From NCBI GenBank assembly GCA_050747825.1, contig JBOGJG010000300.1, positions 17,479 through 81,478 of the forward strand: a stretch of DNA of 64,000 nucleotides, written 5' to 3'. The notes below the pieces were generated by a model. The model did no database searches. It saw only the letters and a list, made by a program, of their open reading frames with translations, and was not told the origin of the DNA. Position 1 is the first letter of the stretch, and every line of letters starts with the position of its first letter. This DNA is from Acidobacteriota bacterium. GTDB lineage: Bacteria; Acidobacteriota; UBA6911; RPQK01; JBOGJG01. Shown here one piece after another: positions 10,133 through 61,927 of the stretch. The position numbers were made by a program, and so were the translations under genes.

Positions 10133-11512
10133 TTACCACCCCAGCAGTCCCCTGGGCAGCGGCACCTGTAAAATATTGCCAAAGAGTTGATAAACCGCGG
10201 GAACGAGCAGGACAGTCACGACTGCGCTGACCCACAGCCGGCTTCCCAGCCTCCACAGCAGCAGAAAGGCGATGGCGCTGGAGGTCAAAATGAAACCAAG
10301 GTTTTCAGCAAAGAATACGTACAGGGCGACAGCGAGGATGATGTCGAGGAAGTGCATGAGAGCGGTGAAGCGCACGCGGAGCCGCTCTCTTACAGTCGCG
10401 GCCCGGATAAACGGAGCCGCGACCGTAAGAAAGCGACCCCGCATGAGGCCCATAATTATGAGCGCCGCCAGCAATAGACTAAGAATGACAAAGAGCAGCC
10501 GGGGGAAGTCCATAGGCTGAAAGCGGCTGGAGCGAACGGTGGAAAATTCTTCGCTGGTCAGCAGAGTCCCCAGTTCCTCATCGAAGCGCTTGAGCATCTC
10601 TTGAGATTCCGCCGGCGGACGCCAGGACAGATTGAAGCCCTGGGCCGCCATAAACTGGGGAAAAGTCCTACCGTTCACCCGGCTGGATCCGCTCATGATG
10701 CGCTGCATAACCTCAACCAGCCGATTGAAAATGGTAATGGGTGTCCCCTTGGGGACGCCTAAGCCGCGCCAACCTCCCATCACCCAGTCGATTCCCTGCT
10801 CCCGGAAAGTTGGAACATCCGGAAATAAGCTCAGGCGCGTATCTGACATGACCCCCAGGGAACGGACTACTCCCCCCGAGAGCAAAGTCGTGGCCTCAGG
10901 AAGGCTGCAGGAAACCACATCGATTCCTCCACTGGCGAGTTCCTGAAGCGAGGGGCCGGCGCCGCCCATGGGAATCCAACGGATGTCGCCCGGATCCAAT
11001 CCAGCCGCTTTCAGCGATCCTGCCAGAGCCAGATGCCAGATCCCGCCGGCGGCAGTTCCGGAAGCGGTCAAGGTTCCCGGATTGGCTTGAACATCTTCCA
11101 GCAGCGAAGGGAGATCATTCCAGCGGCTGTCGTCGGACCTGACAAAGATGGCCGCCGGATCTTCGTTGAAGACCATGACCGGCCTAAAGTTCTGCCATGA
11201 GATTTCCGTCAGGTCGCGCCAGTGAAGCATATTGAGTTCCACGGTCATCGTGGTCAGCGTGTAGCCGTCGGCCCTGGCCTGCGCTCCGCGGCTGTGCCCG
11301 GTAACGCCCGCTCCGCCCGTAGCGTTGATAACATTGACGGGCACACCCAGCTCCTGCTCCAGAAAAACCGCAATTTGCCTGGATACCGTATCGGTTCCGC
11401 CGCCCACGGCCCAGGGGCAAATCAACAGAATAGGTCGGCTGGGATACTCATCGTTGGTCTGGCATGCTCCGAGCAGCAGCAAGATAGCTGCCAGTGAGAT
11501 CGATAATCGCAT
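10133..11512 (-). CDS. TctC (Bug-family periplasmic binding protein) fused to a TctB-like 4-TM small subunit
   Basis: The N-terminal 320 aa are lipoprotein-like: LLLLGACQ then PILLICPWAVGGGTDTVSRQIA, a Bug/TctC motif. The C-terminal 140 aa form four hydrophobic helices, as in TctB. The frame is continuous over 459 aa. Confidence 0.7.
   Translation of the reverse strand: MRLSISLAAILLLLGACQTNDEYPSRPILLICPWAVGGGTDTVSRQIAVFLEQELGVPVNVINATGGAGVTGHSRGAQARADGYTLTTMTVELNMLHWRDLTEISWQNFRPVMVFNEDPAAIFVRSDDSRWNDLPSLLEDVQANPGTLTASGTAAGGIWHLALAGSLKAAGLDPGDIRWIPMGGAGPSLQELASGGIDVVSCSLPEATTLLSGGVVRSLGVMSDTRLSLFPDVPTFREQGIDWVMGGWRGLGVPKGTPITIFNRLVEVMQRIMSGSSRVNGRTFPQFMAAQGFNLSWRPPAESQEMLKRFDEELGTLLTSEEFSTVRSSRFQPMDFPRLLFVILSLLLAALIIMGLMRGRFLTVAAPFIRAATVRERLRVRFTALMHFLDIILAVALYVFFAENLGFILTSSAIAFLLLWRLGSRLWVSAVVTVLLVPAVYQLFGNILQVPLPRGLLGW
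10381..10430. repeat. Family A palindromic repeat inserted in-frame in the TctB-like part of tctCB
   Basis: cttacagtcgcggcccggataaacggagccgcgaccgtaag. It encodes ...[18 protein letters not shown].... Confidence 0.55.
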
Positions 11513-11582
11513 TGAGTTTCAAGTTCCAAGTTTCAAGTTCCAAGCTCCAAGTTCCAAGTTGGAACTTGAAACTTGGAACTCG
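11512..11582. repeat. 70-bp near-perfect palindrome built from tandem 7-bp units (caagttc / caagttt)
   Basis: gagtttcaagttccaagtttcaagttccaagctccaagttccaagttggaacttgaaacttggaactc. It lies between the ferritin stop and the tctCB start. Confidence 0.7.
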
Positions 11583-11587
11583 CAAAA

Positions 11588-15666: not shown

Positions 15667-16764
15667 ATGAGAAAACTTTACATTACCTCGCTTCTCGTCC
15701 TGTTTCTCCTCGTCTTGACCGGTGTTGGGGAAACGGAAAAACGTCTACTTTACGTGGCTACGCCCGGAATTCGCAATTATCTGGAGTATGGGGGGCACGG
15801 CCTTTTGGTCTACGACATCGATCAGGGACATCAACTCCTGCGGCGGATCCCGATGGGTGGGCTGGATGAGAATGGGCGTCCCATGAATGTCAAAGGCATT
15901 TGCGCCAGCGCCAAGACGGGCCGCCTCTACGTGAGCACCATCAGGACGCTGATGTGCTTTGACCTGACCACCGACACAATGTTGTGGGAAAAAGAATATG
16001 AGGGAGGATGCGACCGGATGTCCATTTCTCCCGACGGAACGATCATTTATGTCCCTTCCTTTGAAAAGGACCATTGGAACGTGGTGGACGCGATTTCGGG
16101 GGATGTGATCGCGAAAGTGGTTCCGAAATCGCGCGCGCACAACACCATTTACGGTCCCGACGCCAGTGAAGTTTATATGGCGGGTCTGGGATCGCCGCTG
16201 CTCTCGGTGGCGGATACCGGCACTCACACCATCAAAAAACAGGTGGGACCCTTCAGCGCCAGCATCCGGCCGTTTACCATTAACGGAAGTCAAACTCTGT
16301 GCTTCGTCAACGTCAATGAGTTGCTAGGATTTGAGATAGGCGACTTGAAAACGGGCCAGAAGCTGCACCGGGTCGAAGTGCAGGGATACGAACAGGGTCC
16401 TGTCAAGCGGCATGGCTGCCCCAGCCACGGGATCGCGCTGACGCCCGGCGAGGAGGAAATTTGGCTCACTGACGCCGCCAACACCCGGCTCCACATTTTC
16501 GATGCCACCGTGATGCCTCCCCGGCAGATCACCTCCATCGAGGTTCGCGACCAGCCGGGATGGGTGACCTTCAGCATCGACGGAACCCTGGCCTACCCTT
16601 CAACAGGTGACGTAATCGACACCAAAACCCGAATAGTGGTCGCCACTCTGCAGGATGAAGACGGTCACGACGTGCAAAGCGAAAAGCTGCTCGAAGTCGA
16701 CTTCTCCGGCCCAAGGCCCATCCGCAGCGGCGACCAATTCGGCATCGGCGCAGGAGGAAATTGA
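15667..16764 (+). CDS. Secreted beta-propeller protein (YncE / YVTN-repeat-like)
   Basis: Signal peptide, then repeated ...LYV.. / ..DG..IYV beta-propeller blades. Confidence 0.45.
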   Translation: MRKLYITSLLVLFLLVLTGVGETEKRLLYVATPGIRNYLEYGGHGLLVYDIDQGHQLLRRIPMGGLDENGRPMNVKGICASAKTGRLYVSTIRTLMCFDLTTDTMLWEKEYEGGCDRMSISPDGTIIYVPSFEKDHWNVVDAISGDVIAKVVPKSRAHNTIYGPDASEVYMAGLGSPLLSVADTGTHTIKKQVGPFSASIRPFTINGSQTLCFVNVNELLGFEIGDLKTGQKLHRVEVQGYEQGPVKRHGCPSHGIALTPGEEEIWLTDAANTRLHIFDATVMPPRQITSIEVRDQPGWVTFSIDGTLAYPSTGDVIDTKTRIVVATLQDEDGHDVQSEKLLEVDFSGPRPIRSGDQFGIGAGGN

Positions 16765-16817
16765 GAGACGGTCACTTTTTTCCGGGGACCAAAAAAGGTG
16801 ACTGTCCCTCAATTTCC
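16758..16817. terminator. 60-bp perfect palindrome; bidirectional terminator between convergent genes
   Basis: ggaaattgagagacggtcacttttttccggggaccaaaaaaggtgactgtccctcaatttcc. It overlaps both stop codons. Confidence 0.6.
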
Positions 16818-23346: not shown

Positions 23347-23546
23347 AGCAGGCGAATTATCACAGAAGATGTGCTTGGCAGCAAGGTGGACTCCTGATGA
23401 AGTCGTTTATTTCCTGCGGCTGTGCTAAGTACATGGGTTCATGAATTCAGTCACGTGTTTTTAGCCAGTAGAGTAGAGGAGGGCGGGTCTGAGTAAGGCG
23501 TCGCCCGGGTTTGACCCAGGGATAGCTAATAAGGTATTAAAAAAGT

Positions 23547-23801
23547 ATGAATACGAATGTAAAGAGCAGCATTACATTGCCCGCAGACGATCTCCGCCGA
23601 GTCAAGCGCTTGAAGGAGCGCCTGCAGCTGAAGAGCAACGTGGCTGTGGTTCGTGAGGGACTCCGAGTGCTGGAGGAAAAGAGCGACCGCGAGGCTTTAG
23701 GGCAAGAATTCCGCAAGGCCTCGTTGGCGACACGGCAGGCCCTGTTTGAAGAGCTGGAAGAGCTCGATCATCTCGCCAGTGAGGGGCTGAATTCCGCGTG
23801 A
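23547..23801 (+). CDS. Type II antitoxin (MazE/RHH-like) of the MazF pair
   Basis: 84 aa, overlapping the toxin by 4 bp. Confidence 0.55.
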   Translation: MNTNVKSSITLPADDLRRVKRLKERLQLKSNVAVVREGLRVLEEKSDREALGQEFRKASLATRQALFEELEELDHLASEGLNSA

Positions 23802-24139
23802 AGATAGAACACGGGCGCCTCTACCTGGCCGATCTTAATCCGCGCTTTGGAACGGAACCGGGAAAAATGCGGCTGGTCCTCGTGATTCAATCCGATCTTC
23901 TCAATGAAACAGGTCATCCCTCGACGTGGATTGTCCCCTGCACCACATGGCTCGCCGGTGGGAACGCACTGCGTGTGGTTCTCCCCAAAGGAATTGCGGC
24001 CAATGACAAGGAATGCGAGGTGATGGTCGATCAGAGCCGTGTCATCGACAATCGCCGAATCGGCAAGCCGCTTAGCTTCCTTCCAACTCTCCTCTTGTGC
24101 GAAGTTAAAGAGAAGATGCGGCGGGCAGGCGACCTCTAA
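23798..24139 (+). CDS. mazF: MazF/PemK-family endoribonuclease toxin
   Basis: GRLYLADLNP..G.E.GK.RLVLVIQSD...STWIVPCTT.... matches the PemK/MazF fold signature. Confidence 0.75.
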   Translation: MKIEHGRLYLADLNPRFGTEPGKMRLVLVIQSDLLNETGHPSTWIVPCTTWLAGGNALRVVLPKGIAANDKECEVMVDQSRVIDNRRIGKPLSFLPTLLLCEVKEKMRRAGDL

Positions 24140-24264
24140 GGATTCGCGCACAGGCCACCTGGATGAGTTGCCCGCGCAGCGCCATGGCAAGGGCCGGCCA
24201 GAGACCGCAGCTACGTCTTGAACGAGCACGTTTGACACATTTCAGTCAAATAGATCTGCCAGGC

Positions 24265-24320
24265 TCTGTGAAATCCGTGGCCCATCTATGTTGGTGTATT
24301 TGTGAAATCGTGTGCTAAGT
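24265..24320. repeat. Family B repeat, partial copy (tgtgaaatccgtggccc) plus a degenerate direct repeat
   Basis: It matches the ccacggatttcacgg / ccgtgaaatccgtgg arms seen at 41346, 47128, 57074 and 61770. Confidence 0.4.
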
Positions 24321-29500: not shown

Positions 29501-30278
29501 GCGGGCGCTCACCTACAATCCTGATGGACTTCTGGATGGAGCCGTCAATCTGGCCATTGCCGGAAATCACGTTTATGTGACATGCGACCGCGGCCTGGTG
29601 ATTCTCAATTTCAAGGATCCACTGAAGCCGACCATTACGTCGGTCATTGGAGAGCCTTTCATCAAGAAACCCCGGTCGGTCGCGATTCAGTTCCGTTACG
29701 CCTTCCTAGCCGATTCCGAGGGCATCAAGGTCGTCGATGTGACCCTACCCGAAAAATCGCATCCAGTAGAAACAGGAAAATTCTTGCTCGAGGATGCGCG
29801 CGACATCTATATCGCCAGAACATACGCTTATATTGCAGCGGGCAAGCAGGGCCTGGTCATCCTGGACGTCGAACGTCCCGAATTTCCGCGCCACTTTCTG
29901 ACCTATAACGCTGAAGGCGAAATAAACGACGCCTGGCAGGTGAAGCTTGCCATGAGCAACGCCAGCTCGTTCGCTTATATCGCAGACGGCAAGAACGGGC
30001 TGCGCGTCCTTCAAATAACCTCACCGGAAAAAACCCCAGGGTTATTTGGCTACAGTCCGGAGCCCTCCCCGGAACTCATCGCCACCTATCACACTCATGG
30101 CCCCGCGGTGGCGGTAGCGAAGGGATTAGACCGCGATCGAGCCGTGGACGAGAGCGGAAACCAAATAGCGGTGTTTGGCCGGCGCGGCGCCCGCCCCTTC
30201 AACTTCCAGGAAATGCAGCGGCTGTATCTAAAGCAGGGCAAGGTCTACCAGGTAACAGATGAACTGCCCAGGAAATAG
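26598..30278 (+). CDS. Large multihaem c-type cytochrome (8 CxxCH plus 2 CxxxxCH motifs) fused to a C-terminal LVIVD-repeat beta-propeller
   Basis: Signal peptide. The motifs are CISAGCH, CTDCH, CGTAGCH, CTACH, CMVCH, CVDCH, CIDCH, CYACH, CFGCH and CTDCH. The C-terminal 450 aa carry repeated GL.I.DV / GLVIL.. motifs (LVIVD repeats). Confidence 0.8.
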   Translation: MRKVAALMMLTSAAVLAGFYPSAERLEGESWTEQPYKTWDEIRQPVDVSKTLLSQPPEEAQRKSAGCISAGCHTSVEPMHVSESVRLGCTDCHGGNADAIEKARAHVLPTNTEVFGSSANPVRAYTAWLRESPEFVRFVNPGDLRVLDQTCGTAGCHQDISFKVRKSMMTHGGMLWGAALYNNGAYPLKDTPFGESYAIDGTPQRIQTIPPPTPQETHDQGIIPYLDPLAQWGISQPGNVLRVFERGGKELIEIGIPDIEAEAGLPDKGLSIRGFGTLNRTDPVVLGLQKTRLMDPLLHMPGTNDHPGDYRASGCTACHVVYANDRSPAHSGPYARFGNGGMSVTSDPTIPRDEAGHPIRHRLTRSIPSSQCMVCHMHPGTNMLTTYFGYTWWDNETDGNHMYPVHERNLSAEEIDRIERANPEGSAVKGLWSDPEFLKNLTDLNPRLKHVQFADFHGHGWVYRAVFKRDRKGNLLDSEGRIVSFDDPGKFEKAVHLKDIHLEKGMHCVDCHFEQDVHGSGKLYNEPRAAIEIDCIDCHGSIYERASLKTSSFAAPPGGHDLSVLRTPWGRKRFEVQAEKIIQRSMVVEDLEWEIDQVLDTISPQSPSYNEKSRRAKTLQKDGKTWGGALDEDTLAHSNSSMTCYACHSSWMTSCFGCHLSMQANKMKTMLHNEGTITRNWTSYNYQVLRSDVFMLGVDGTVSAHRVAPVRSSSAVVVSSQTGNREWVYQTQQTVSAEGYSGQAFSTHVPHTVRSRETKGCTDCHVSTENDNNAIMAQLLLLGTNYTNFMGRYVYVGERENGFEAVAIAEREEPQAVIGSYLHRLAYPSKYEKHEEAHHELKEAYHHHGKDILSVQLRGEYLYTANGPEGLEIFDVAQIDHKGFSERMVTAPVSPLGQRFYVRSKYATAVASPSTLAVDPARTQRPENDEQAIAPIYAYIFFTDKYEGLILVNAATLLDGDPTNNFLERALTYNPDGLLDGAVNLAIAGNHVYVTCDRGLVILNFKDPLKPTITSVIGEPFIKKPRSVAIQFRYAFLADSEGIKVVDVTLPEKSHPVETGKFLLEDARDIYIARTYAYIAAGKQGLVILDVERPEFPRHFLTYNAEGEINDAWQVKLAMSNASSFAYIADGKNGLRVLQITSPEKTPGLFGYSPEPSPELIATYHTHGPAVAVAKGLDRDRAVDESGNQIAVFGRRGARPFNFQEMQRLYLKQGKVYQVTDELPRK

Positions 30279-30316
30279 AGGGACGTTCAATTTTGCAGGT
30301 GAACGTCCCTCTATTT
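30275..30316. terminator. Palindromic bidirectional terminator (atagagggacgttcaattttgcaggtgaacgtccctctattt)
   Basis: A perfect 14-bp stem between convergent cytochrome genes. Confidence 0.55.
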
Positions 30317-41294: not shown

Positions 41295-41345
41295 CCATTC
41301 AGCCTGCGAGGCTCCCACGACGACCTGCTACGGCCTGCTCTATAG

Positions 41346-41377
41346 CCACGGATTTCACCGTATGATTCGTTGGCCCA
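41346..41377. repeat. Family B repeat, partial copy
   Basis: gccacggatttcaccgtatgattcgttggccc. Confidence 0.4.
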
Positions 41378-41421: not shown

Positions 41422-42834
41422 ATGTGGTTGATTCTCGTTCTCTGGCTGACTAGTCCAATGCTGGCCTTTCAAAGCTCTGAATTGCCCCAAGTTCCCGATT
41501 TGCCTGTCTTGGGAAAGCAGTTGCCCGAGGCTGTCCGCCAGGAAGTGAACGAGTTGCACGCCAGGGCCCGCAAAAATCCGCAGGACGTGGATACAATCGG
41601 GCCCCTGGCGATGCTCATGCATGCTTACGAGCAATACCAGTTTGCAGAATTCTGTTACCGCCGCGCCCAGGAGCTGCAGCCGGATTCGTTTCAGTGGAGC
41701 TACTATCTGGGTCTCGTGCAGGCGAGACAGGGCGAGCATCAAGAGGCGGCTGATTCTCTGCGCAAGGCGCTCCTGCTGGATCCCAATTACGTTCCCGCCT
41801 GGCTGAAGCTCGTGGGATCCCTTCTCCAACTCGAACAGTTTGAAGAAGCGGCAACGATTTGCCAGGCGATCCTCCGCGAATATCCGCAGGCGGCGGTGGC
41901 CCATTACGGCCTGGGGCGCGTTAAAGCCCAACAGGGGAATCTCGAAGAAGCCGTCAGTCATTATCTGAAGGCCTGCGAGCTGCACCCGGGATTTGGCGCC
42001 TCCCATTACGCCCTGGGGCTCGCCTACCGCGACTTGGGCAATAACGCCAAGGCCCGGGAACACCTCTCTTTGTACCAGCAGAACAAGCTGGGCTGGCCTT
42101 CCGCGGAAGATCCTCTTTGGACCGCAGTCCAGCAGTTGAAGAGCGGCCCACTTCACCATCTGAAGCTGGCCATTGACCTGGCCAATGAGAATCGGCTTGA
42201 GCAATCCATCCGCGAACACCAGAAGGCGCTGGAGCTGGACCCCAACCTGCTGCAGGCCCATGTCAATCTCTCAAACCTTCAGGGCCGACTCGGAAACTGG
42301 AAAGAGGCCGAAAAGCATTACCAGGCGGCGGCAGCAATTAATCCCAATCTGCCGGACCTTCACTATAACTACGGAATCATTCTAGGCGCGCGGGAACGTC
42401 ACGCCGAAGCGGCCGAGGCTTTCCAGAAAGCGCTTGAGATCAATCCGTTCTACGCGGAGGCCCACAACAATCTGGGATCCATGCTGGCCCTGCAGGGCGA
42501 TCTGCACAAGGCGGCCCGCCATTATCGTCAGGCAATCGAAAACAATCCAAATTACCGGCTGGCCCGGTTCAATCTGGGCCGCACGCTGATTGCGCTGGGA
42601 GAGCACCAGGAGGCCATCGACCAGCTCCTGAAGATCCTGACTCCCGAGGATGAGGACACTCCGCGCTTCATGTTTGTCCTGGCGGCAGCTTATGCCCGAT
42701 CCGGGAACGTGGAGAAAGCGCTTTTCTACACGAGAGAAGCCAAGGAGCGAGCGGAAGCGCTGGGGCAGATGGAGCTGGCCGCTTCGGCTGAGGAAGGCCT
42801 GAAGCAACTGGAGCAGGCACGGCGGCCGCAATGA
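41422..42834 (+). CDS. TPR-repeat protein (secreted)
   Basis: Signal peptide plus multiple 34-residue W-LG-Y / A...Y..A repeats. Confidence 0.75.
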
Positions 42835-44630
42835 GACTTCGGGTACTGCTTCTTCTCGCCGTTTTGCCGGCTGTTTTCTCGCCAACCGGCTCGGTTGCCC
42901 ATGAAGTGCCGATTTTCAGAGAGGTGGCGGCTGAGGCCGGCCTGGAGTTTCAGCATTTCAACGGATCAAGCGGTGAGTTTTTTGTGCCCGAGATTATGGG
43001 TCCCGGGGTGGCGCTGTTGGATTACGACGGGGATGGGGATCTGGATGTCTATCTGACTCAGGGCCGCTCCCTCACGGTCGCGGCTCGGATGACGGAGCAG
43101 GAGCGGAAAACGGTGCAGGATCAAAAAACGGCGCTCGAATCCGAGCCGCGACTGTCAGCGAGCGGCCATCGGCTTTTTCGCAATCTGCTGAAGGAGGAAG
43201 GCCGGCTCCGATTCACGGATGTTACCGAAAAGGCCGGCCTGGGACACCAGGGTTACGGCATGGGGGCCGCCGTGGGCGACTACGACAACGACGGCGACCC
43301 AGATTTATACGTGACTAATTTCGGCAGCAATGTCTTGTATCGCAACAACGGAGACGGCACGTTTAGCGATGTCACCCGCGAAGCCGGCGTCGATGACCCG
43401 CGCTGGAGCACCAGCGCAGCTTTTTTAGATTACGACCGCGACGGAGACCTCGACCTTTTCGTCACCAACTACATCAATTTCAGCGTGGCCGCCAATCGGA
43501 CCTGTTACGACCCGGCCGGCGCGCGGGACTACTGCAACCCGTCCGTCTACAGTCCCGTGCCGGACCGACTCTTTCGCAATGAAGGCGCGGGACAGTTCTC
43601 GGAGGCCACCGAAGCGGCCGGGATTACGCTCGCCTATGGGCCCGGCCTGGGAGTCGTCTGCGCCGACTTCAACGCAGACGGATGGACCGACATCTACGTG
43701 GCCAATGACGGCACGGCCAATCTGCTCTGGATCAACCAGGGCAACGGTACCTTCGACGAGCAGGGACTGCTCTCGGGAAGCGCCTACAATGGAAACGGCA
43801 TGGCCGAGGGCAGCATGGGAGTAAGCGCCGGCGATTTCGACAATGACGGCGACGAAGACCTTTTCATGACTCATCTCAATCAGGAGAAGAACACGCTCTA
43901 TCTCAATCGCGGCCAGGGTGTTTTTCACGATGCCAGCCGGGAGTTCGACCTGGCGGCCCCCAGCTTTGCCTACACCGGCTTTGGGACGCAATGGTTCGAT
44001 TTCGACAGCGACGGCTATCTGGATCTTTTCGTGGCCAATGGCGCCGTCACCATCTTGGAGCAGTTGCGTGCACAGCCGTTTCCCTATCATCAAAAGAATC
44101 AGCTCTTCCGAAACCTGGAGGGAAAAGGCTTTCAAGACATCACGGCCGCCGCCGGACTCGCCCTGGAGTTATCTGAAGTCAGCCGCGGCGCCGCCTTTGG
44201 CGACATCGATAATGACGGCGATATCGATATCCTGGTCACAAACAACAACGGACCCGCGCGCCTGCTGCTCAATGAGTCAGCGCAGAAGCACTGGCTGAGC
44301 GTGCGTCTGGAAGGAACCCAGGATAATCGCTTGGGCATCGGCGCTCGCGTCGGCATTCTCCGAAGGTCAGTCAGCAGTCAGCGGTCAGCGGTCAGCGGTC
44401 AGCGGCCGGTCATCTGGCGGCGCGCCCACACCGACGGAAGTTACCTCAGCGCCGGCGATATCCGAGTTCACTTCGGCCTGGGGACGGATGCCGACCTGGA
44501 GGGAGTTGTTGTTCAGTGGCCCAACGGCCAATCTGAAGTGTGGACGGATGTTCAGCCCGATTCATTCCTGACCCTGAAGCAGGGCACGGGGGAAGCTTGG
44601 CCGATGGAGCAGGAGCAGGGGCGGCCATGA
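42831..44630 (+). CDS. CRTAC1-family protein (FG-GAP/VCBS repeats plus C-terminal ASPIC/UnbV domain)
   Basis: Repeated DYDGDGDLD / [12 protein letters not shown] / [11 protein letters not shown] motifs and a C-terminal UnbV_ASPIC-like domain. 4-bp overlap with the upstream TPR gene. Confidence 0.8.
43061..43170. repeat. Family A palindromic repeat (full, about 110 bp) inserted in-frame in a CRTAC1 gene
   Basis: gggccgctccctcacggtcgcggctcggatg....atccgagccgcgactgtcagcgagcggcc. It encodes [35 protein letters not shown], which is absent from the paralog at 44627. Confidence 0.65.
44363..44408. repeat. Tandem 7-bp repeat (gcggtca x3 perfect plus 2 imperfect) inside a CDS
   Basis: gtcagtcagcagtcagcggtcagcggtcagcggtcagcggcc. 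It encodes ...[14 protein letters not shown].... Confidence 0.7.
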
Positions 44631-46301: not shown

Positions 46302-46634
46302 TCAATTTTCCAAGGCGCGCTTAATCAAAAGTTCTTCCAGGTCGCGACGGCCGTCCAAAACGCCGACAATACCCACGACATCCTTATCAATCCGGAAGAG
46401 AATTCGATAGGGCGGAACAATCAGTTCTCGGTACTGTCTTACTCCGACGGCCTTAAGTTCCGGGACAATTCTACATCGCCGTGGATAATTGGCGAGCGTA
46501 TGGGTTCGTCCCAGGATGTTCGAGCAGAAACACTCTGCCGAGGAAGGATGATCATTTGAAGCAATGTATTCGAAGATCTGAATTAGATCCTCAACGGCGC
46601 TTGGAGACCATTCAATACGATAAGCGTCAGTCAC
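46302..46634 (-). CDS. parE: ParE/RelE-family type II toxin
   Basis: A 110-aa RelE/ParE fold pattern (...RIEWSPSAVEDL..I..YI.......A..F.........L...P..G......E.KAVGVRQYRELIVPPYRILFRIDKD.V.IV.VLDGRRDL). Confidence 0.7.
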   Translation of the reverse strand: MTDAYRIEWSPSAVEDLIQIFEYIASNDHPSSAECFCSNILGRTHTLANYPRRCRIVPELKAVGVRQYRELIVPPYRILFRIDKDVVGIVGVLDGRRDLEELLIKRALEN

Positions 46635-46911
46635 CTTTCAGGTTCTTCAGCTTCTGATTAAAGCGCCTGACGGCTTCTTGATGGCTGATGCCCTTGCTCT
46701 CTCGCAGCTCTTGATCACCTCTGGCCAAAAACTTGAGAAGCAGGAGCGCCTTGCGCTGCCGCTGAAAAGTGTCTACATCCTGCAATACTGCCGTAGCCTT
46801 GCCGTTCTGGGTGATAATGACAGGCTGGCCGGACTCTCTTGCCTTACGAATGAGTTCAGCACTCCTGGTCTTCAATACCGTCACGGGCTCTATCGATTTG
46901 GAATAATCCAT
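46627..46911 (-). CDS. Phd/YefM-family antitoxin
   Basis: MDYSKSIEPVTVLKTRSAELIRKARESGQPVIITQNGKATAVLQDVDTFQ, which overlaps the toxin start. Confidence 0.65.
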   Translation of the reverse strand: MDYSKSIEPVTVLKTRSAELIRKARESGQPVIITQNGKATAVLQDVDTFQRQRKALLLLKFLARGDQELRESKGISHQEAVRRFNQKLKNLKGD

Positions 46912-47046
46912 GCAAAGGTCCAAGTGCATCCTAATATAGCCCCATAATTTGGATCCAGTCAAGAGATGATTCCAGAGGTGGCTTCAAGGACAAAGGGGCA
47001 CGGACTTCGCGAGACTCCGTGCCCCTGTTGGACGAATCGGCTGCCT

Positions 47047-47120
47047 GCGCTACCAGTGCAGCTTCAGTTCGAGGCGAATGTAGCGTTCGGGCGCATTGAT
47101 GTTGGTGCTGGTGATGATTA
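47047..47120 (-). pseudogene. Relic 3' end of a third TonB-receptor-like paralog
   Basis: The reverse complement encodes ...IITSTNINAPERYIRLELKLHW*. It is about 80% identical at the nucleotide level to the last 70 bp of the genes at 47202 and 50983. Confidence 0.5.
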
Positions 47121-47127
47121 GTATTTG

Positions 47128-47190
47128 GGCCACGGATGACACGGATTTCCCTGATTTGAATCTGCGTCAATCCGTGAAATCCGTGGCTCT
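47128..47190. repeat. Family B palindromic repeat
   Basis: gggccacggatgacacggattt...caatccgtgaaatccgtggctc. Confidence 0.55.
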
Positions 47191-56177: not shown

Positions 56178-56222
56178 GATGTCGGGTGGGATTTTTTCCC
56201 GGCGTTTCCACTAAGCTGAGCC

Positions 56223-56250
56223 CCGGATTACACGGATTACGCGGATTTAA
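56223..56250. repeat. Family B repeat, partial
   Basis: ccggattacacggattacgcggattt. Confidence 0.4.
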
Positions 56251-56298
56251 AGACATCGGCACGACTCTTGCATCCACATTAAGGACTAAAGGAGGTCT

Positions 56299-57039
56299 AT
56301 GATGAGGTCTATGATTATGAATGACGCGAAACTGATTTTAACCGCGTGTTTACTTATCTTTTCCGTTGCTCTTGTAACCGCAGCCGAGTTGAATCAGAAG
56401 ACGGAACTGACGGTACGTGAGCCGATCCAGATTCCGGGAATGACGTTGCAGCCAGGTGAATACGTTTTCAAGCTGGCTGATTCCCAGCAGAATCGGCATA
56501 TCGTACAGGTGTTCCGCGCCGGCGAAGAGGGCAATGAGGAAGAGATTCTCGCGACTATCCTTGCCATTGCAAGTGAGCGCCAATTGGGCGACGGCGAGTT
56601 GGAACTTACCTTTTATGAGACTCCGGCCGGAGTACCCGATGCTCTGAGAGCCTGGTATTGGACTGGAAATGCTACCGGCCATGAGTTCATCTACGATGAG
56701 GATGAGGCTTTCCAGATTGCTGAGGCCAGCGGACAAGAAGTCCCCATACGTGGAGAGGATGACGTAGCCACAGAGAGAGCCAGACCCGGCCAGCGAACCG
56801 AATTTGAAACCCAAGCTGAGGACGAAGATCGCGACGCGCAGTTCGAGCAGGAGCAGACCGTGGCGCAGGCTCAGCCCCGTCAAGAACAGCAGTTCGAAAC
56901 GCAGCAGCAGTTCGAAGAAGAGGAAGAAGAGCAGGACTTTGGAGCCCTGCCGGGCACAGCCAGCCCTCTGGCGCTGATGGCGCTGATCGGCTTGCTTTCC
57001 CTTGGAGGAGCAGCAGCCGTGAGAGCGCTAAGACGGTAG
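56299..57039 (+). CDS. Secreted acidic E/Q-rich protein with a C-terminal PEP-CTERM-like sorting tail
   Basis: Signal peptide. Low-complexity region ...FETQAEDEDRDAQFEQEQTVAQAQPRQEQQFETQQQFEEEEEEQDF. It ends ALPGTASPLALMALIGLLSLGGAAAVRALRR (motif, TM helix, Arg cluster). Confidence 0.45.
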   Translation: MMRSMIMNDAKLILTACLLIFSVALVTAAELNQKTELTVREPIQIPGMTLQPGEYVFKLADSQQNRHIVQVFRAGEEGNEEEILATILAIASERQLGDGELELTFYETPAGVPDALRAWYWTGNATGHEFIYDEDEAFQIAEASGQEVPIRGEDDVATERARPGQRTEFETQAEDEDRDAQFEQEQTVAQAQPRQEQQFETQQQFEEEEEEQDFGALPGTASPLALMALIGLLSLGGAAAVRALRR

Positions 57040-57050
57040 ACTTACACGAT

Positions 57051-58043
57051 TTGACAATACACCGACGTATATTGAGCCACGGATTTCACGGATTGATGCT
57101 GCTTATTCTATGTCATCCGTGTAATCCGTGGCCCACTCAGGTCTCAGGTCAGCCCTCACAACAGCCATTTCCCATTTCGGTGGACGTTGATCTGACGCTC
57201 CTCTATGTCTCCGTAGAGGATGACGAGGGCGATTTCGTAGGCGGCTTGTCCCGCCAGGACTTCCAGGTTTTTGAAGATGGCCGGTCTTGCGAGATCAAGA
57301 TTTTTAGAGAAGGAGACGTTCCCCTTACCTGGGGTCTGGTGGTGGATAAAAGCGCCAGCATGATGAATAAGTACCAGGAAGTTTTTGGCGCCTCACTCCA
57401 GTTCGCTCAAACTCGCAAGCCAGAAGACCAGTTTTTTGTCGTGAGTTTCAATGACCGTGTTTACATGAGTCTCTCGGAGCAGGATCCCTTCTTGAGGAAT
57501 ATGGTGGACCTGAGACGGGCTCTTATTGAAGTCTCAATGACAGGACAAACGGCTCTTTATGACGCGCTGGTTACGGCTCTCGAGCAGCTTGAACGGGGCA
57601 AACACCTCAAGAAAGCTCTGATTGCCATCAGCGACGGCGGTGATAATGCCAGCCGCCACAGCTTCGATCAGGTGCTGGAGATGGCCCGAGCCTCCGAAGC
57701 GATCATCTACACGGTGGGAATTTACAATTCGGCTAACCGGGACCGCAACCCGGATATTTTGAAGCAGTTGGCCGGCGAGACCGGAGGATTTGCCGCCTTT
57801 CCAGGCCGCACAAGCCGCCTGGAAGAAGTGGCCCAGGAAATTGCCCAGAACCTGCGCAGACAGTACGTGATCGGCTATGTCCCGCTGCCGGCCCCCGACC
57901 AGATGAAATACCGGAAGGTCAGAGTAGAAGTCGAGGATGAGGGTCTTACCGTGAGAACGCGCAGCGGCTACTACTTGGCCACGGATTACACGGTTGACAC
58001 GGAACTACCAGCCTGTGGTAAAAGTCCTGAGGGGTCGTGTTAG
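57051..58043 (+). CDS. VWA-domain protein (Acidobacteria VWA family usually paired with GWxTD proteins)
   Basis: ...FPISVDVDLTLLYVSVEDDEGDFVGGLSRQDFQVFEDG..C.I..F.... LVVDKSASM is the MIDAS DxSxS motif. The first 28 codons are encoded by a family B repeat. Confidence 0.7.
   Translation: MTIHRRILSHGFHGLMLLILCHPCNPWPTQVSGQPSQQPFPISVDVDLTLLYVSVEDDEGDFVGGLSRQDFQVFEDGRSCEIKIFREGDVPLTWGLVVDKSASMMNKYQEVFGASLQFAQTRKPEDQFFVVSFNDRVYMSLSEQDPFLRNMVDLRRALIEVSMTGQTALYDALVTALEQLERGKHLKKALIAISDGGDNASRHSFDQVLEMARASEAIIYTVGIYNSANRDRNPDILKQLAGETGGFAAFPGRTSRLEEVAQEIAQNLRRQYVIGYVPLPAPDQMKYRKVRVEVEDEGLTVRTRSGYYLATDYTVDTELPACGKSPEGSC
57074..57133. repeat. Family B palindromic repeat overlapping the 5' end of the VWA gene
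   Basis: gagccacggatttcacggattgatgctgcttattctatgtcatccgtgtaatccgtggccc. Confidence 0.55.
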
Positions 58044-58095
58044 ACGACTCCACTTCCCTGGCGCACGGCCCCTCAGGACTTTTACCACAGGCTGC
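58007..58095. terminator. 28-bp-arm perfect palindrome between the convergent VWA and GWxTD genes
   Basis: cctgtggtaaaagtcctgaggggtcgtg ... cacggcccctcaggacttttaccacagg. The left arm encodes the VWA C-terminus ...PACGKSPEGSC. Confidence 0.55.
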
Positions 58096-58102
58096 TAAAG
58101 AA

Positions 58103-59737: not shown

Positions 59738-59900
59738 AGGCGCGATTATACACCATCGCCGTCAGCCTCACTGGTGTAAAATCGCTGGCATTCCATGAAA
59801 AGAAGGTCGAGCAGCTCGGCGGAAGCATTTACGTCGCCAGCCCGATCGCGGGCGGCCGAGGCACGCGGTTCGACGTGAGGGTTCCGGATGCACACACGGG

Positions 59901-59958
59901 GAAATAGGGGGGCGGTCACTTTTCGCGACGCGAAACAAGGTGACCGTCCCCCTATTTC
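59901..59958. terminator. 58-bp perfect palindrome terminator
   Basis: ggaaataggggggcggtcacttttcgcgacgcgaaacaaggtgaccgtccccctatttcc. Its arms are related to those at 16758 (cggtcactttt / aaggtgaccg, ggaaat / atttcc). Confidence 0.55.
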
Positions 59959-61749
59959 CTAGCGCGCCACCGGGAGACTCGAAGACTGGACCCCGTTGTG
60001 GGTACGAATCAGCGTCACGGCAATATCACCACTGGCGCTAATGAAGAGAGTGGCGTCCAGATCGTCCGGCAAATCGCCGATCTCTTCAACAAAGATGGCA
60101 GTTTGTTCTCCAGGGTCCAAGGTGATCTCGCTCTGCGCGATGATCTGGCCATCGGCCCGGACGGTGAAGTTGACCACGACAGCATCCGACTGCGACGGAT
60201 TCACCAGGGCCAGGGCGGTGTCGAGGCCCAGCGCAGAACGGCGCTGAATATGCGTGGTGAACTCCCTTGCGAGTTCTGACGCGGCGATGCCGGCTTCGGC
60301 AAGCGGCTCGCCTGAAGGGCCAGCTAACGTGTAGATGACCGCGCCGGCGATCCGGGCATCGGCCTTGATTTCAGCCCACCCAACCGCCAGCGGCGAGGAA
60401 GTGCCGCTGGTGGTGAACGCCCGCGAAGATCTGGGTTCCAACTGAAAGGCGAAGCTGCTATCCGTTTCACCGTCGATAGTCAGAACCTGAGGGTCTCCAG
60501 CCTGCGAAAACAGCCTGAGCTCAGCGCTGACCAGCTCTTCCTGGTTGTTGCTGACCACAACCGTGGACCGAAGCCGATCGTCTACCGCCATTCCATCCGC
60601 CACATGCGCGAAAAGCTCGCGCCAGCCGAACTGAAGCTGCAAGACTTCTCCGCCGTGATCCACCAGGTACAAATTGCCGGCCTCATCCTCACCAAATGAA
60701 CTGATGTGGCGGGACGTAGCGAGCAGCTCGGTCCTCTCCCAATCACCGGGGCCGGTCTCCCGAAGGGACCAGACGCTGCCGGAGATGAAATCGCCGAAAA
60801 TGTAGACACCTTGCAGTCCCGTCGATTCAGGCCCGCGATATACGTAGCCGCCGGTGATCGAGCCGCCCTGCGAACGGCCATAGCTGGTGATGGGGAGGAT
60901 CAGGCCTTCCTCGCAGGGAGGTGAATCGGCGAAGCATTCGGGACCTTCCATTCTGTTCCAGCCGTAATTGCCGCCCTTGAGGATGATGTCCACTTCCTCC
61001 CAGGCACTCTGGCCGACGTCGCCCGCGAACAGCCGTCCGCCGGCCCGGTCGAAGGAGAAGCGCCATGGGTTGCGCAGACCGTAGGCCCAAATTTCGCCTC
61101 TGGATGCAGGATCGTCCATAAAGGGATTATCGGGAGGAATGGCGTAAGGCGAACCTGCTTCAGGCAGGCCCCTGTCCACATCAATTCTCAGTATCTTCCC
61201 CAGTAGATTGCTTCGGTTCTGAGCGTTTCCCTGGGGATCGCCGCCCGAGCCTCCGTCACCCGTGCCGATGTACAGGTAGCCGTCGGGACCGAAGGCCAGC
61301 ATCCCGCCGTTGTGATTCGTGAACGGCTGGCTGAACTCCAGCAGAATGGTCTCTTGGCGGGAAGCCATGTCAGGGTTTTCAGCGGAGACCTGGTACTCGG
61401 CGACGACCGTCGTCAGTCCGTCATTCTGGCGCGTATAATTCACGAAAAAGCGCCCGTTCTCTTCATAATCAGGATGGAAGGCCAATCCCAGCAGTCCCCG
61501 TTCGCCGCCGGAAATGACGCGGTCGTTAATATCCAGGAACGGAGTCGCCAGCAGCGTCCCGTCCTGGAAAATCAAGATTCTTCCCGCCTGCTCCACGATA
61601 AACAGACGCTCCGATCCGTCGCCGGCGTGAGTGACGTAAAGGGGCGAGCTCAATCCCGAGACGAGGGGAACGAGCTGAATCGTGGACTCCGCAAGAGCAT
61701 TACTCGACAGATACAGAGAAAGGCAGATAAGATGCGAAAATTTCAACAA
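59959..61749 (-). CDS. PQQ-dependent sugar dehydrogenase (soluble GDH / sorbosone-DH-like beta-propeller) with a C-terminal extension of about 220 aa
   Basis: ...PLYVTHAGDGSERLFIVEQAGRI.... GLLGLAFHPDY is the conserved HP motif. ...FGPDGYLYIGTGDGG... and ...IWAYGLRNPWRFSFD follow. Confidence 0.75.
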   Translation of the reverse strand: MLKFSHLICLSLYLSSNALAESTIQLVPLVSGLSSPLYVTHAGDGSERLFIVEQAGRILIFQDGTLLATPFLDINDRVISGGERGLLGLAFHPDYEENGRFFVNYTRQNDGLTTVVAEYQVSAENPDMASRQETILLEFSQPFTNHNGGMLAFGPDGYLYIGTGDGGSGGDPQGNAQNRSNLLGKILRIDVDRGLPEAGSPYAIPPDNPFMDDPASRGEIWAYGLRNPWRFSFDRAGGRLFAGDVGQSAWEEVDIILKGGNYGWNRMEGPECFADSPPCEEGLILPITSYGRSQGGSITGGYVYRGPESTGLQGVYIFGDFISGSVWSLRETGPGDWERTELLATSRHISSFGEDEAGNLYLVDHGGEVLQLQFGWRELFAHVADGMAVDDRLRSTVVVSNNQEELVSAELRLFSQAGDPQVLTIDGETDSSFAFQLEPRSSRAFTTSGTSSPLAVGWAEIKADARIAGAVIYTLAGPSGEPLAEAGIAASELAREFTTHIQRRSALGLDTALALVNPSQSDAVVVNFTVRADGQIIAQSEITLDPGEQTAIFVEEIGDLPDDLDATLFISASGDIAVTLIRTHNGVQSSSLPVAR

Positions 61750-61769
61750 TTCTCATTCTAAATGGCATC

Positions 61770-61830
61770 AGCCACGGATTCCACGGATTGGCACAGATTC
61801 AATCAGAGAAATCCGCGCAATCCGTGGCTG
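61770..61830. repeat. Family B palindromic repeat
   Basis: cagccacggattccacggattggcacagattcaatcagagaaatccgcgcaatccgtggctg. Confidence 0.55.
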
Positions 61831-61927
61831 ATCTGGATTTGCGGGAGTTCATGGAGTAAACTGGGTACCCGCGGCTTTTTGGGCAAAAAGGCGAAGGTTT
61901 GTCGTCAAAATATAAGGAGTTCCATCT

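Follow-up and report, generated by a model that had tools for sequence, protein, structure and literature searches.

Short palindromes recur between the genes of a 64-kb stretch of an Acidobacteriota MAG contig (the window, by which we mean the whole stretch analysed), raising the question of what these elements are and how they came to lie where they do. The window covers positions 17460-81459 of CDIKIH010000012.1, an 83.6-kb contig of GCA_975374895.1. A preliminary description had listed six copies of one family, family B, as hairpins of a duplicated ACGGATT unit. All six are present within a few bases of where they had been placed, and the family comprises three full hairpins and four single arms in the window. 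The hairpins are real, but their unit is 9 bp long rather than 7 bp, with an 8-bp core (CACGGATT) plus one variable spacer base, sometimes two; in the whole set of loci studied, neighboring units are spaced 9 bp (n = 287) or 10 bp (n = 93) apart. Each arm of the window hairpins is made of two to three tandem 9-bp units with GCC outward in every arm, and the arms of a full hairpin are 20-21 nt apart. The hairpin at 47129-47187 (no strand assigned to this or the other full hairpins) has 19-nt arms, GCCACGGATGACACGGATT and AATCCGTGAAATCCGTGGC, that are 89% complementary with 21 nt between them, each side having one degenerate third unit in addition, and folds at -33 kcal/mol (z -5.5 to -6.2). At 57073-57135 the arms are 21 nt long and 90% complementary (-30.9 kcal/mol, z -5.4), and at 61767-61832 they are 23 nt long and 91% complementary, with three units per arm (-34 to -39 kcal/mol); by eye, this last copy matches the reverse complement of 47129-47187 from end to end at about 85% identity. 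Overall, the folding energies of the three full hairpins range from -31 to -39 kcal/mol, with z between -5.2 and -6.7.

The single arms vary in how well their units are preserved. Three tandem units (GCCCCGGATTACACGGATTACGCGGATT) stand at 56220-56250 on the + strand, three degenerate ones (GGCCACGGATTACACGGTTGACACGGAA) at 57978-58005 (+), a copy that was absent from the earlier list, and a degenerate arm (AGCCACGGATTTCACCGTA) at 41345-41363 (+). The arm at 24263-24282 lies on the - strand (GCCACGGATTTCACAGAGCC on that strand) and has a possible degenerate second, direct copy at 24300-24316. When the three-unit single arm was folded (56210-56260), no structure beyond that of shuffled controls was found. 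Chance matches of a short word, which would have made the family an artefact, can be excluded: the 17-mer CACGGATTTCACGGATT with up to three mismatches has 13 matches in the window versus 0.16 expected, a number equalled by none of 100 shuffles, and cross-genome scans with two-unit and four-unit patterns (see below) lead to the same conclusion. The word ACGGATT alone occurs 18 times in the window, with 7.4 occurrences expected. A search of Rfam gave no window match at gathering score, the sub-threshold matches being chance miRNA-like ones only, and an origin of the motif in rRNA or tRNA was rejected, the best match in an E. coli rrn operon having 5 mismatches in 16 positions.

Family B is accompanied in the window by other repeats. 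A palindrome of another repeat family, with 34-nt arms (58006-58097; 94% complementary, -67.8 kcal/mol, z -7.5), abuts the single arm at 57978-58005, between convergent VWA and GWxTD genes. The hairpin at 11515-11585 consists of tandem TTCCAAGTT/TTTCAAGTT-like units, tandem and then inverted as in family B but with another unit, and may be the shell of another small cassette. Intergenic palindromes of the form GGAAAT.GAG.GAC.GTCAC / GTGAC.GTC.CTC.ATTTCC at 16756-16817, 30273-30316 and 59900-59959 are probably what had earlier been named family A. Another palindrome family, containing CACGGTCGCGGCTCGG, is found at 907-961, 10373-10445 and 43062-43167; long ORFs (10133-11512, with TctC as well as TctB domains annotated, and 42831-44630) contain two of its copies, which makes in-frame insertions or gene fusions possible there.

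All family B copies had been described as promoter-proximal, a label that is wrong because the window copies sit near stop codons. Using the gene calls supplied with the contig (crude ORF calls were used for the other loci), we found that five of the seven either follow a stop codon by no more than 51 nt or run into one, with one more at 131 nt. The hairpin at 47129-47187 is 14 nt past the stop (47202) of a TonB-dependent receptor gene on the - strand, and the one at 57073-57135 is 34 nt past the stop (57039) of a 245-aa ORF. The arm at 56220-56250 follows the stop of a TPR gene (56177) by 43 nt and precedes the 245-aa ORF by 52 nt; that at 41345-41363 is 51 nt past a glycoside hydrolase stop (41294) and 59 nt ahead of the next gene, and that at 24263-24282 is 131 nt past the stop of a PemK toxin gene (24132) and 102 nt ahead of its next neighbor. 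The arm at 57978-58005 falls within the final 66 nt of the annotated VWA ORF and runs into its 3' end. Only 61767-61832 occupies a divergent promoter region, between a GSDH gene (-, start 61746) and an S8 peptidase gene (+, start 61928). The overlap with the 5' end of the VWA gene, noted previously, is also real: its annotated start (57096) is inside the hairpin at 57073-57135, and both the N-terminal 'HGFHG' and the C-terminal 'ATDYTVDT' of the VWA ORF are translated repeat.

Across all loci, a facing stop codon is no more than 50 nt away for 78 of 163 elements. A correlation with gene starts or ends had been proposed as a check, and it is with the ends that positions correlate (median 56 nt to a stop), not with the starts (median 247 nt). 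Neighboring genes are co-directional, convergent and divergent in 67, 36 and 12 cases, compared with a background of 63, 20 and 17%; elements are thus enriched between convergent genes and depleted between divergent ones. The elements prefer positions just after stop codons. Relative to transcription, the single arms are without strand bias (14 sense versus 16 antisense).

Several neighbors of the window copies are worth recording. The 245-aa ORF (56302-57039), secreted-looking and acidic, is flanked by the + arm at 56220-56250 and the hairpin at 57073-57135; it has no Pfam match, and a metagenome scan gave no relative of it. For the VWA protein the closest relative found has 48% identity, and nothing nearer was found for the window locus. 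Directly behind 47129-47187, at 47050-47120 (- strand) together with 46996-47026, lies a remnant of a TonB-dependent receptor C-terminus of 22 codons plus a stop, about 70% identical to the 3' ends of two intact receptor genes and followed by a GC-rich hairpin, which suggests a deletion or rearrangement at the repeat. Two copies adjoin toxin-antitoxin genes (PemK toxin and an 84-aa partner at 23540-24132, and a Phd/YefM antitoxin at 46627-46911), probably by coincidence in a genome rich in such modules.

To see how far the motif extends, we scanned a 596-Gb collection holding one genome per species with the exact pattern GCCACGGATTNCACGGATT (18 fixed bases), which gave at least 120 genome loci, with about 17 chance matches expected in the whole collection. 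A feature that the pattern did not ask for, either a third unit or an inverted partner within 450 nt, is present at 88 of the 120 listed loci. Among the matches listed, CACGGATT arms occur in at least 15 phylum-level groups with G+C contents from 33 to 74%, including Acidobacteriota, Bacteroidota, Ignavibacteriales, Chloroflexota, Planctomycetota, Verrucomicrobiota, alpha-, beta- and gamma-Proteobacteria, 'Deltaproteobacteria', Bacillota, Spirochaetales, Cloacimonadota, WOR-3 and others, and the arms are thus spread across phyla. Cultured carriers include Azospirillum lipoferum 4B, other Azospirillum strains, Rudaea and Bacteroides finegoldii. A four-unit pattern (32 fixed bases) found at least 120 loci in metagenomes, with arrays of up to 24+16 units. 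No CACGGATT-array match was found in 5426 E. coli genomes, and phages have almost none, with three motif-bearing contigs in IMG/VR. What the loci have in common is only the arms: the loops are unrelated, element length ranges from 42 to 433 bp and single arms make up 61 of 149 seeds. Unit number differs between the orthologous sites L077 and L115. In Azospirillum lipoferum 4B, an element lies between alr and an ABC permease gene and is missing there in two related species, the only presence/absence case seen and one with blurred borders.

Some carriers arrange the arrays in unusual ways. In a deltaproteobacterial MAG (L005, 1013-1770) the complete hairpin is repeated in tandem at least six times, with a period of 131 bp, and the 24+16-unit run stands at the end of a metagenome contig (L194, 5609-5976). 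In an Azospirillum MAG (L025, L049 and L050) the array hairpin is nested in a repeat of about 290 bp with its own inverted ends (GGCAATCGCTTGAAGC...GCTCGTTCAAGCGATTGCC), and in a Bacillota MAG (L030, L095, L103 and L113) arrays flank 150-390 bp of non-coding DNA with nested inverted repeats (GGTGCTGGTGCGAAGCACCGCACCATGG). Outside bacterial genomes, arrays of ACACGGA(A)TT units stand in a divergent intergenic region of 630 bp (L135, 2500-2860) in Vibrio phage 1.105.O and about 200 related phage records, beside a PAPS-reductase-like gene and small winged-helix genes. These phage arrays look like iterons or operators; they were discarded as a clue to a binding protein, their neighbors being without link to the protein described next.

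An earlier clustering of neighboring genes on 120 genome loci had returned housekeeping families only. The link to a particular gene emerged from the metagenome scan for four-unit arrays: clustering the ORFs around 240 motif-derived loci again gave mostly housekeeping genes, the exception being a protein of about 123 aa in nine loci, which is PF13366 (PDDEXK_3) and TIGR04256 ('GxxExxY protein'). In 241 sequences there are 137 adjacent (+,-) array pairs, and the gap between the two arrays is bimodal: 105 pairs are less than 100 bp apart, and five are separated by 403-477 bp. All five of the longer gaps (L090, L156, L191, L201 and L204) hold an intact GxxExxY ORF, the gene sitting exactly between the (+) and (-) CACGGATT arrays. 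In another locus (L257) the gene abuts an array at the contig end. Fragments of it are found between arrays in L159 and L015 and beside arrays in L111 (two copies), and their matches stay significant with the arrays masked. The arrays are therefore physically associated with the GxxExxY gene, the only one recurrently bracketed by CACGGATT arrays in about 250 loci, and since gene fragments lie between or next to arrays, the loci form a decay series from intact gene through fragment to empty hairpin, with the empty hairpins outnumbering the occupied ones by about 25 to 1.

The window copies belong at the empty end of this series. They share with the gene-bearing elements the inverted arrays, at least two tandem 9-bp units, the outward (G/A)CCAC...GTGG(C/T) ends and the location in a short spacer just after a host stop codon (5 of 7). 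Neither hmmsearch nor tblastn found a GxxExxY gene in the 64-kb window, and the window loops measure about 20 nt; because no GxxExxY ORF lies between their arrays, we class these copies as gene-less derivatives and not as full members. In a collection of plasmids, tblastn likewise gave no GxxExxY match on the Azospirillum plasmids that have hairpins.

The association also holds when genes are picked without regard to the motif. We chose ten GxxExxY genes by protein similarity alone, through a protein search and a tblastn search of plasmid and chromid records from cultured strains. Tandem 9-bp units abut the start codon in nine of the ten, and an inverted array comes right after the stop in at least seven, as in the flanks ACCACAGAGGACACAGAGG...CCTCTGTGTCCTCTGTGGT, AACGGATTGAACGGATT...AATCCGTTAAATCCGTT and ACCACGAAGATCACGAAGA...TCTTCGTGTTCTTCGTGGT. 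The unit itself varies, being CACAGAGGA in SAR324/Delta, B. finegoldii and Bernardetia, CACGAAGA in Desulfobacter, CGCGAAGG in Sphingomonas, CGCAAAGA in Methanoperedens, ACAAATCG in Prevotella and a single CACGGATTCG in Treponema, with AACGGATT as a further type. Where annotated housekeeping genes adjoin, the GxxExxY gene starts about 30-60 nt past the upstream stop in the same orientation, for example from radA to a gene for a FAD-dependent protein, from ade to a guanylyltransferase gene, from fabD to fabG, between pyruvate:ferredoxin oxidoreductase (POR) subunit genes, between cobalamin-pathway methylase genes and after thiC. Proteins with GAGG/GAAG units form a clade, mutually mostly 48-73% identical (40-41% in one comparison), and share 31-47% identity with most CACGGATT-type proteins; a Gemmatirosa sequence, only approximately delimited, is 51-56% identical to two CACGGATT-type proteins. 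In these sequence comparisons, unit type goes partly with protein clade, and gene and arrays therefore tend to be inherited together.

The GxxExxY protein is itself plausibly a nuclease, judging from its predicted structure. The AlphaFold model (pLDDT 94.7, pTM 0.88) is nearest, among solved folds, to Cas4 SSO0001, lambda exonuclease and RecE (TM about 0.6), and an alignment of 33 homologues leaves D70, E80 and K82 invariant, which is a D...ExK signature; no solved structure matches the protein by sequence. The PF13366/TIGR04256 family is very large (at least 7996 clusters at E <= 1e-10 among 8000 scored candidates). The one paper found to list the family (PMC3424549) gives it no known function and notes 'multiple transfers' from one division to another.

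Taking these observations together, we favor the view, with a probability of roughly 0.6, that the family B hairpins derive from a very small selfish GxxExxY cassette of the CACGGATT subtype, as non-autonomous copies that have no gene. In this view the complete cassette is a gene of about 375 bp for a 123-aa protein of PD-(D/E)XK nuclease fold, bracketed directly by inverted arrays of 9-bp units whose ends face outward as (G/A)CCAC...GTGG(C/T), and it occupies the short spacer just after a host stop codon, often inside an operon. Loss of the gene would leave two arrays able to pair into a hairpin of about 60 bp, further decay of the hairpin would give single arms and slippage would change the number of units. 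The arrays are putative recognition sites of the GxxExxY nuclease, which could copy or move full and empty elements in trans; for the present organism we assume such a trans-acting partner elsewhere. In an operon transcript the inverted arrays could form a long stem that marks or stabilises the 3' end of the upstream mRNA and that might terminate transcription where a T-run follows, and in a full element the stem may let the inserted gene loop out with little polarity. Recognition of the arrays, mobilisation by the nuclease and the action of the stem on transcripts are inferences. A broader proposal, which we offer tentatively and hold at somewhat under even odds, is that GxxExxY genes with their inverted arrays make up an undescribed, nearly pan-bacterial class of miniature mobile element, in which the nuclease would recognise the arrays as hairpin or duplex and copy the unit behind stop codons, with the gene-less hairpins as much commoner, non-autonomous progeny.

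The earlier suggestion that the hairpins act as MITEs or as terminators is supported in part. The MITE reading comes closest, given a gene-bearing relative with the same inverted ends, but there are no target-site duplications to point to any known transposition chemistry, and the partner gene does not encode a transposase of a known family. The position just after stop codons suits a terminator, and a T-run follows 31 of 75 hairpins elsewhere (about 41%) on at least one strand, and on both strands in 11; no T-run is found at any of the three window hairpins, which makes terminator action in the window doubtful. Spacer bases are complementary between arms in 43 of 77 cases versus about 32% expected. 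The inner parts of the arms of true partners pair no better than those of shuffled partners (p = 0.18), and selection for the stem itself is therefore not demonstrated.

In the main alternative the events ran in the opposite order, the hairpin being the primary, host-useful entity (a 3'-end stem-loop, terminator or protein-binding site) and GxxExxY genes having homed into its loop later, in which case the empty hairpins would be unoccupied targets and not decayed cassettes. PD-(D/E)XK homing endonucleases are known, and such an order would account for the 25-fold excess of empty hairpins, for their location just past stop codons with a T-run after 31 of 75 and for the Azospirillum replicons with hairpins and no detectable GxxExxY gene. 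The gene fragments in loops nevertheless look like occupied copies decaying into empty ones, although what they show is that decay occurs, which is compatible with this order as well. A terminator, moreover, needs no single 8-bp core kept across 33-74% G+C, single arms would not be expected to lack strand bias as they do (14 sense, 16 antisense), the window hairpins are without T-runs and unit type partly tracks protein clade, as expected if gene and arrays travel together. We regard this order of events as unlikely. Should the arrays instead be duplex-DNA sites, such as operators or iterons for a chromosomal regulator or replication protein, their hairpin potential would be incidental. The conservation of the 8-bp core rather than of arm-to-arm pairing fits this, as do the many single arms (61 of 149 seeds) without strand bias and the Vibrio phage family with arrays in a divergent control region; their location after stop codons and not at promoters, the lack of a recurrent regulator gene nearby, the local density of about one per 9 kb and the above-chance complementarity of inter-arm spacers (43 of 77) all speak against it, and we judge it quite improbable. 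Among named sites, CsrA-type GGA sites, parS, DnaA boxes and sigma-54 promoters were compared by eye and rejected, a match either needing the variable spacer base or failing at essential positions; single arms are without strand bias, and to our knowledge some motif-carrying groups lack CsrA.

Mobilisation by a classical enzyme is the remaining alternative to the nuclease cassette. Ordinary MITEs would be moved by the DDE transposase of an insertion sequence with the same inverted ends, and terminal inverted repeats, a length of 42-433 bp, intergenic location and AT-rich flanks are all what such elements would show; one Azospirillum MAG hairpin even rides in a MITE of about 290 bp with its own inverted ends. 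Of 75 hairpins, however, no more than 2 have direct flank repeats of at least 3 bp, and in 17 the palindrome instead continues outward. About 250 loci gave no gene of transposase size between or next to arrays, GxxExxY alone being bracketed repeatedly, and a search for a neighboring transposase near paired copies in L010, L021, L082, L018 and L102 found ordinary genes. With no duplications and no transposase in about 250 loci, a DDE-type MITE is very improbable. Hardly credible, finally, is the reading of family B as REP/REPIN elements mobilised by RAYT, a domesticated IS200-type tyrosine transposase, even though these too are extragenic, hairpin-forming, numerous, near gene 3' ends and without target-site duplications. 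The family B arms are tandem direct repeats and not small palindromes with a GTAG head, and the CACGGATT core is common to many phyla, whereas REPs are, as far as we know, specific to a species or genus. When every ORF of about 250 loci was searched with E. coli RayT, L077 and L081 alone gave RAYT-like genes; other palindromes (GTAGGGCCGAATTCATTCGGCC and GTCAGGAGGTAACTCCTGAC) flank or interrupt these genes, and CACGGATT arrays do not. We rejected this origin since the arms are not REP-like and both RAYT genes in carriers are tied to other palindromes. The two genes (L077, 400-500, and L081, 780-1460) are classical RAYT genes with their own REPs, the one in L081 being interrupted by GTCAGGAGGTAACTCCTGAC hairpins.

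If the broader proposal is true, it would provide the first function for the very large PF13366/TIGR04256 family and would account for the presence of a single 8-bp core in hairpins of lineages ranging from Acidobacteriota to Bacteroides, Azospirillum and Bacillota, at 33-74% G+C. The GxxExxY family is now linked to a defined DNA motif. For annotation, the elements give rise to spurious gene starts and C-terminal extensions, the VWA gene of the window being one case; they also lie within operons and can be taken for terminators or small RNAs. The arrays behave as expandable minisatellites of up to 40 units. A literature search by sequence string and keyword found no published description, although database curators may have noted the elements informally.

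Several known systems resemble family B in part. Rho-independent terminators are likewise GC-containing stem-loops just downstream of genes, but a specific conserved sequence is not a terminator property, and the window copies are without T-runs. REP/REPIN elements of E. coli and Pseudomonas are extragenic high-copy hairpins without duplications near gene 3' ends, and family B differs from them in arms that are not palindromic units with a GTAG/GTGG head. REPs stabilise mRNA and, when close to a stop codon, affect translation. ORF-containing intervening sequences of 23S rRNA, reportedly described by Ralph and McClelland in 1993 from Leptospira and others with an 'S23p'/four-helix-bundle protein, are similar in that a small ORF lies between inverted repeats that pair into a stem once the host gene is transcribed; they interrupt essential transcription units, have a patchy distribution over lineages and are regarded as mobile. 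They differ in protein family, in occupying an rRNA helix and not a post-stop spacer, and in that no tandem-unit arrays are reported. Free-standing homing endonuclease genes are also small nuclease genes wedged between or within host genes that spread horizontally and decay once fixed, and I-Ssp6803I is a homing endonuclease of the PD-(D/E)XK type, but such genes are without inverted tandem arrays and without numerous hairpin remnants. MITEs such as Correia/NEMIS of Neisseria share with family B a short, gene-less, intergenic form with terminal inverted repeats folding to a hairpin, a related longer gene-bearing element with the same ends that is far outnumbered by the empty copies, and a capacity to carry or create terminators and to overlap gene ends. 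Unlike them, family B shows no target-site duplication, has as its partner a 123-aa PD-(D/E)XK protein and not a DDE transposase, and ends in arrays of a 9-bp unit present from 2 to more than 24 times. Its CACGGATT core is common to many phyla, whereas MITE clusters were largely genus-specific in a survey of 183,232 genomes (PMC11602168). Intergenic palindromic repeats are as such ordinary; what is out of the ordinary here is an 8-bp core found across at least 15 phylum-level groups, with expandable ends of 9-bp units and a partner gene from a large PD-(D/E)XK family.
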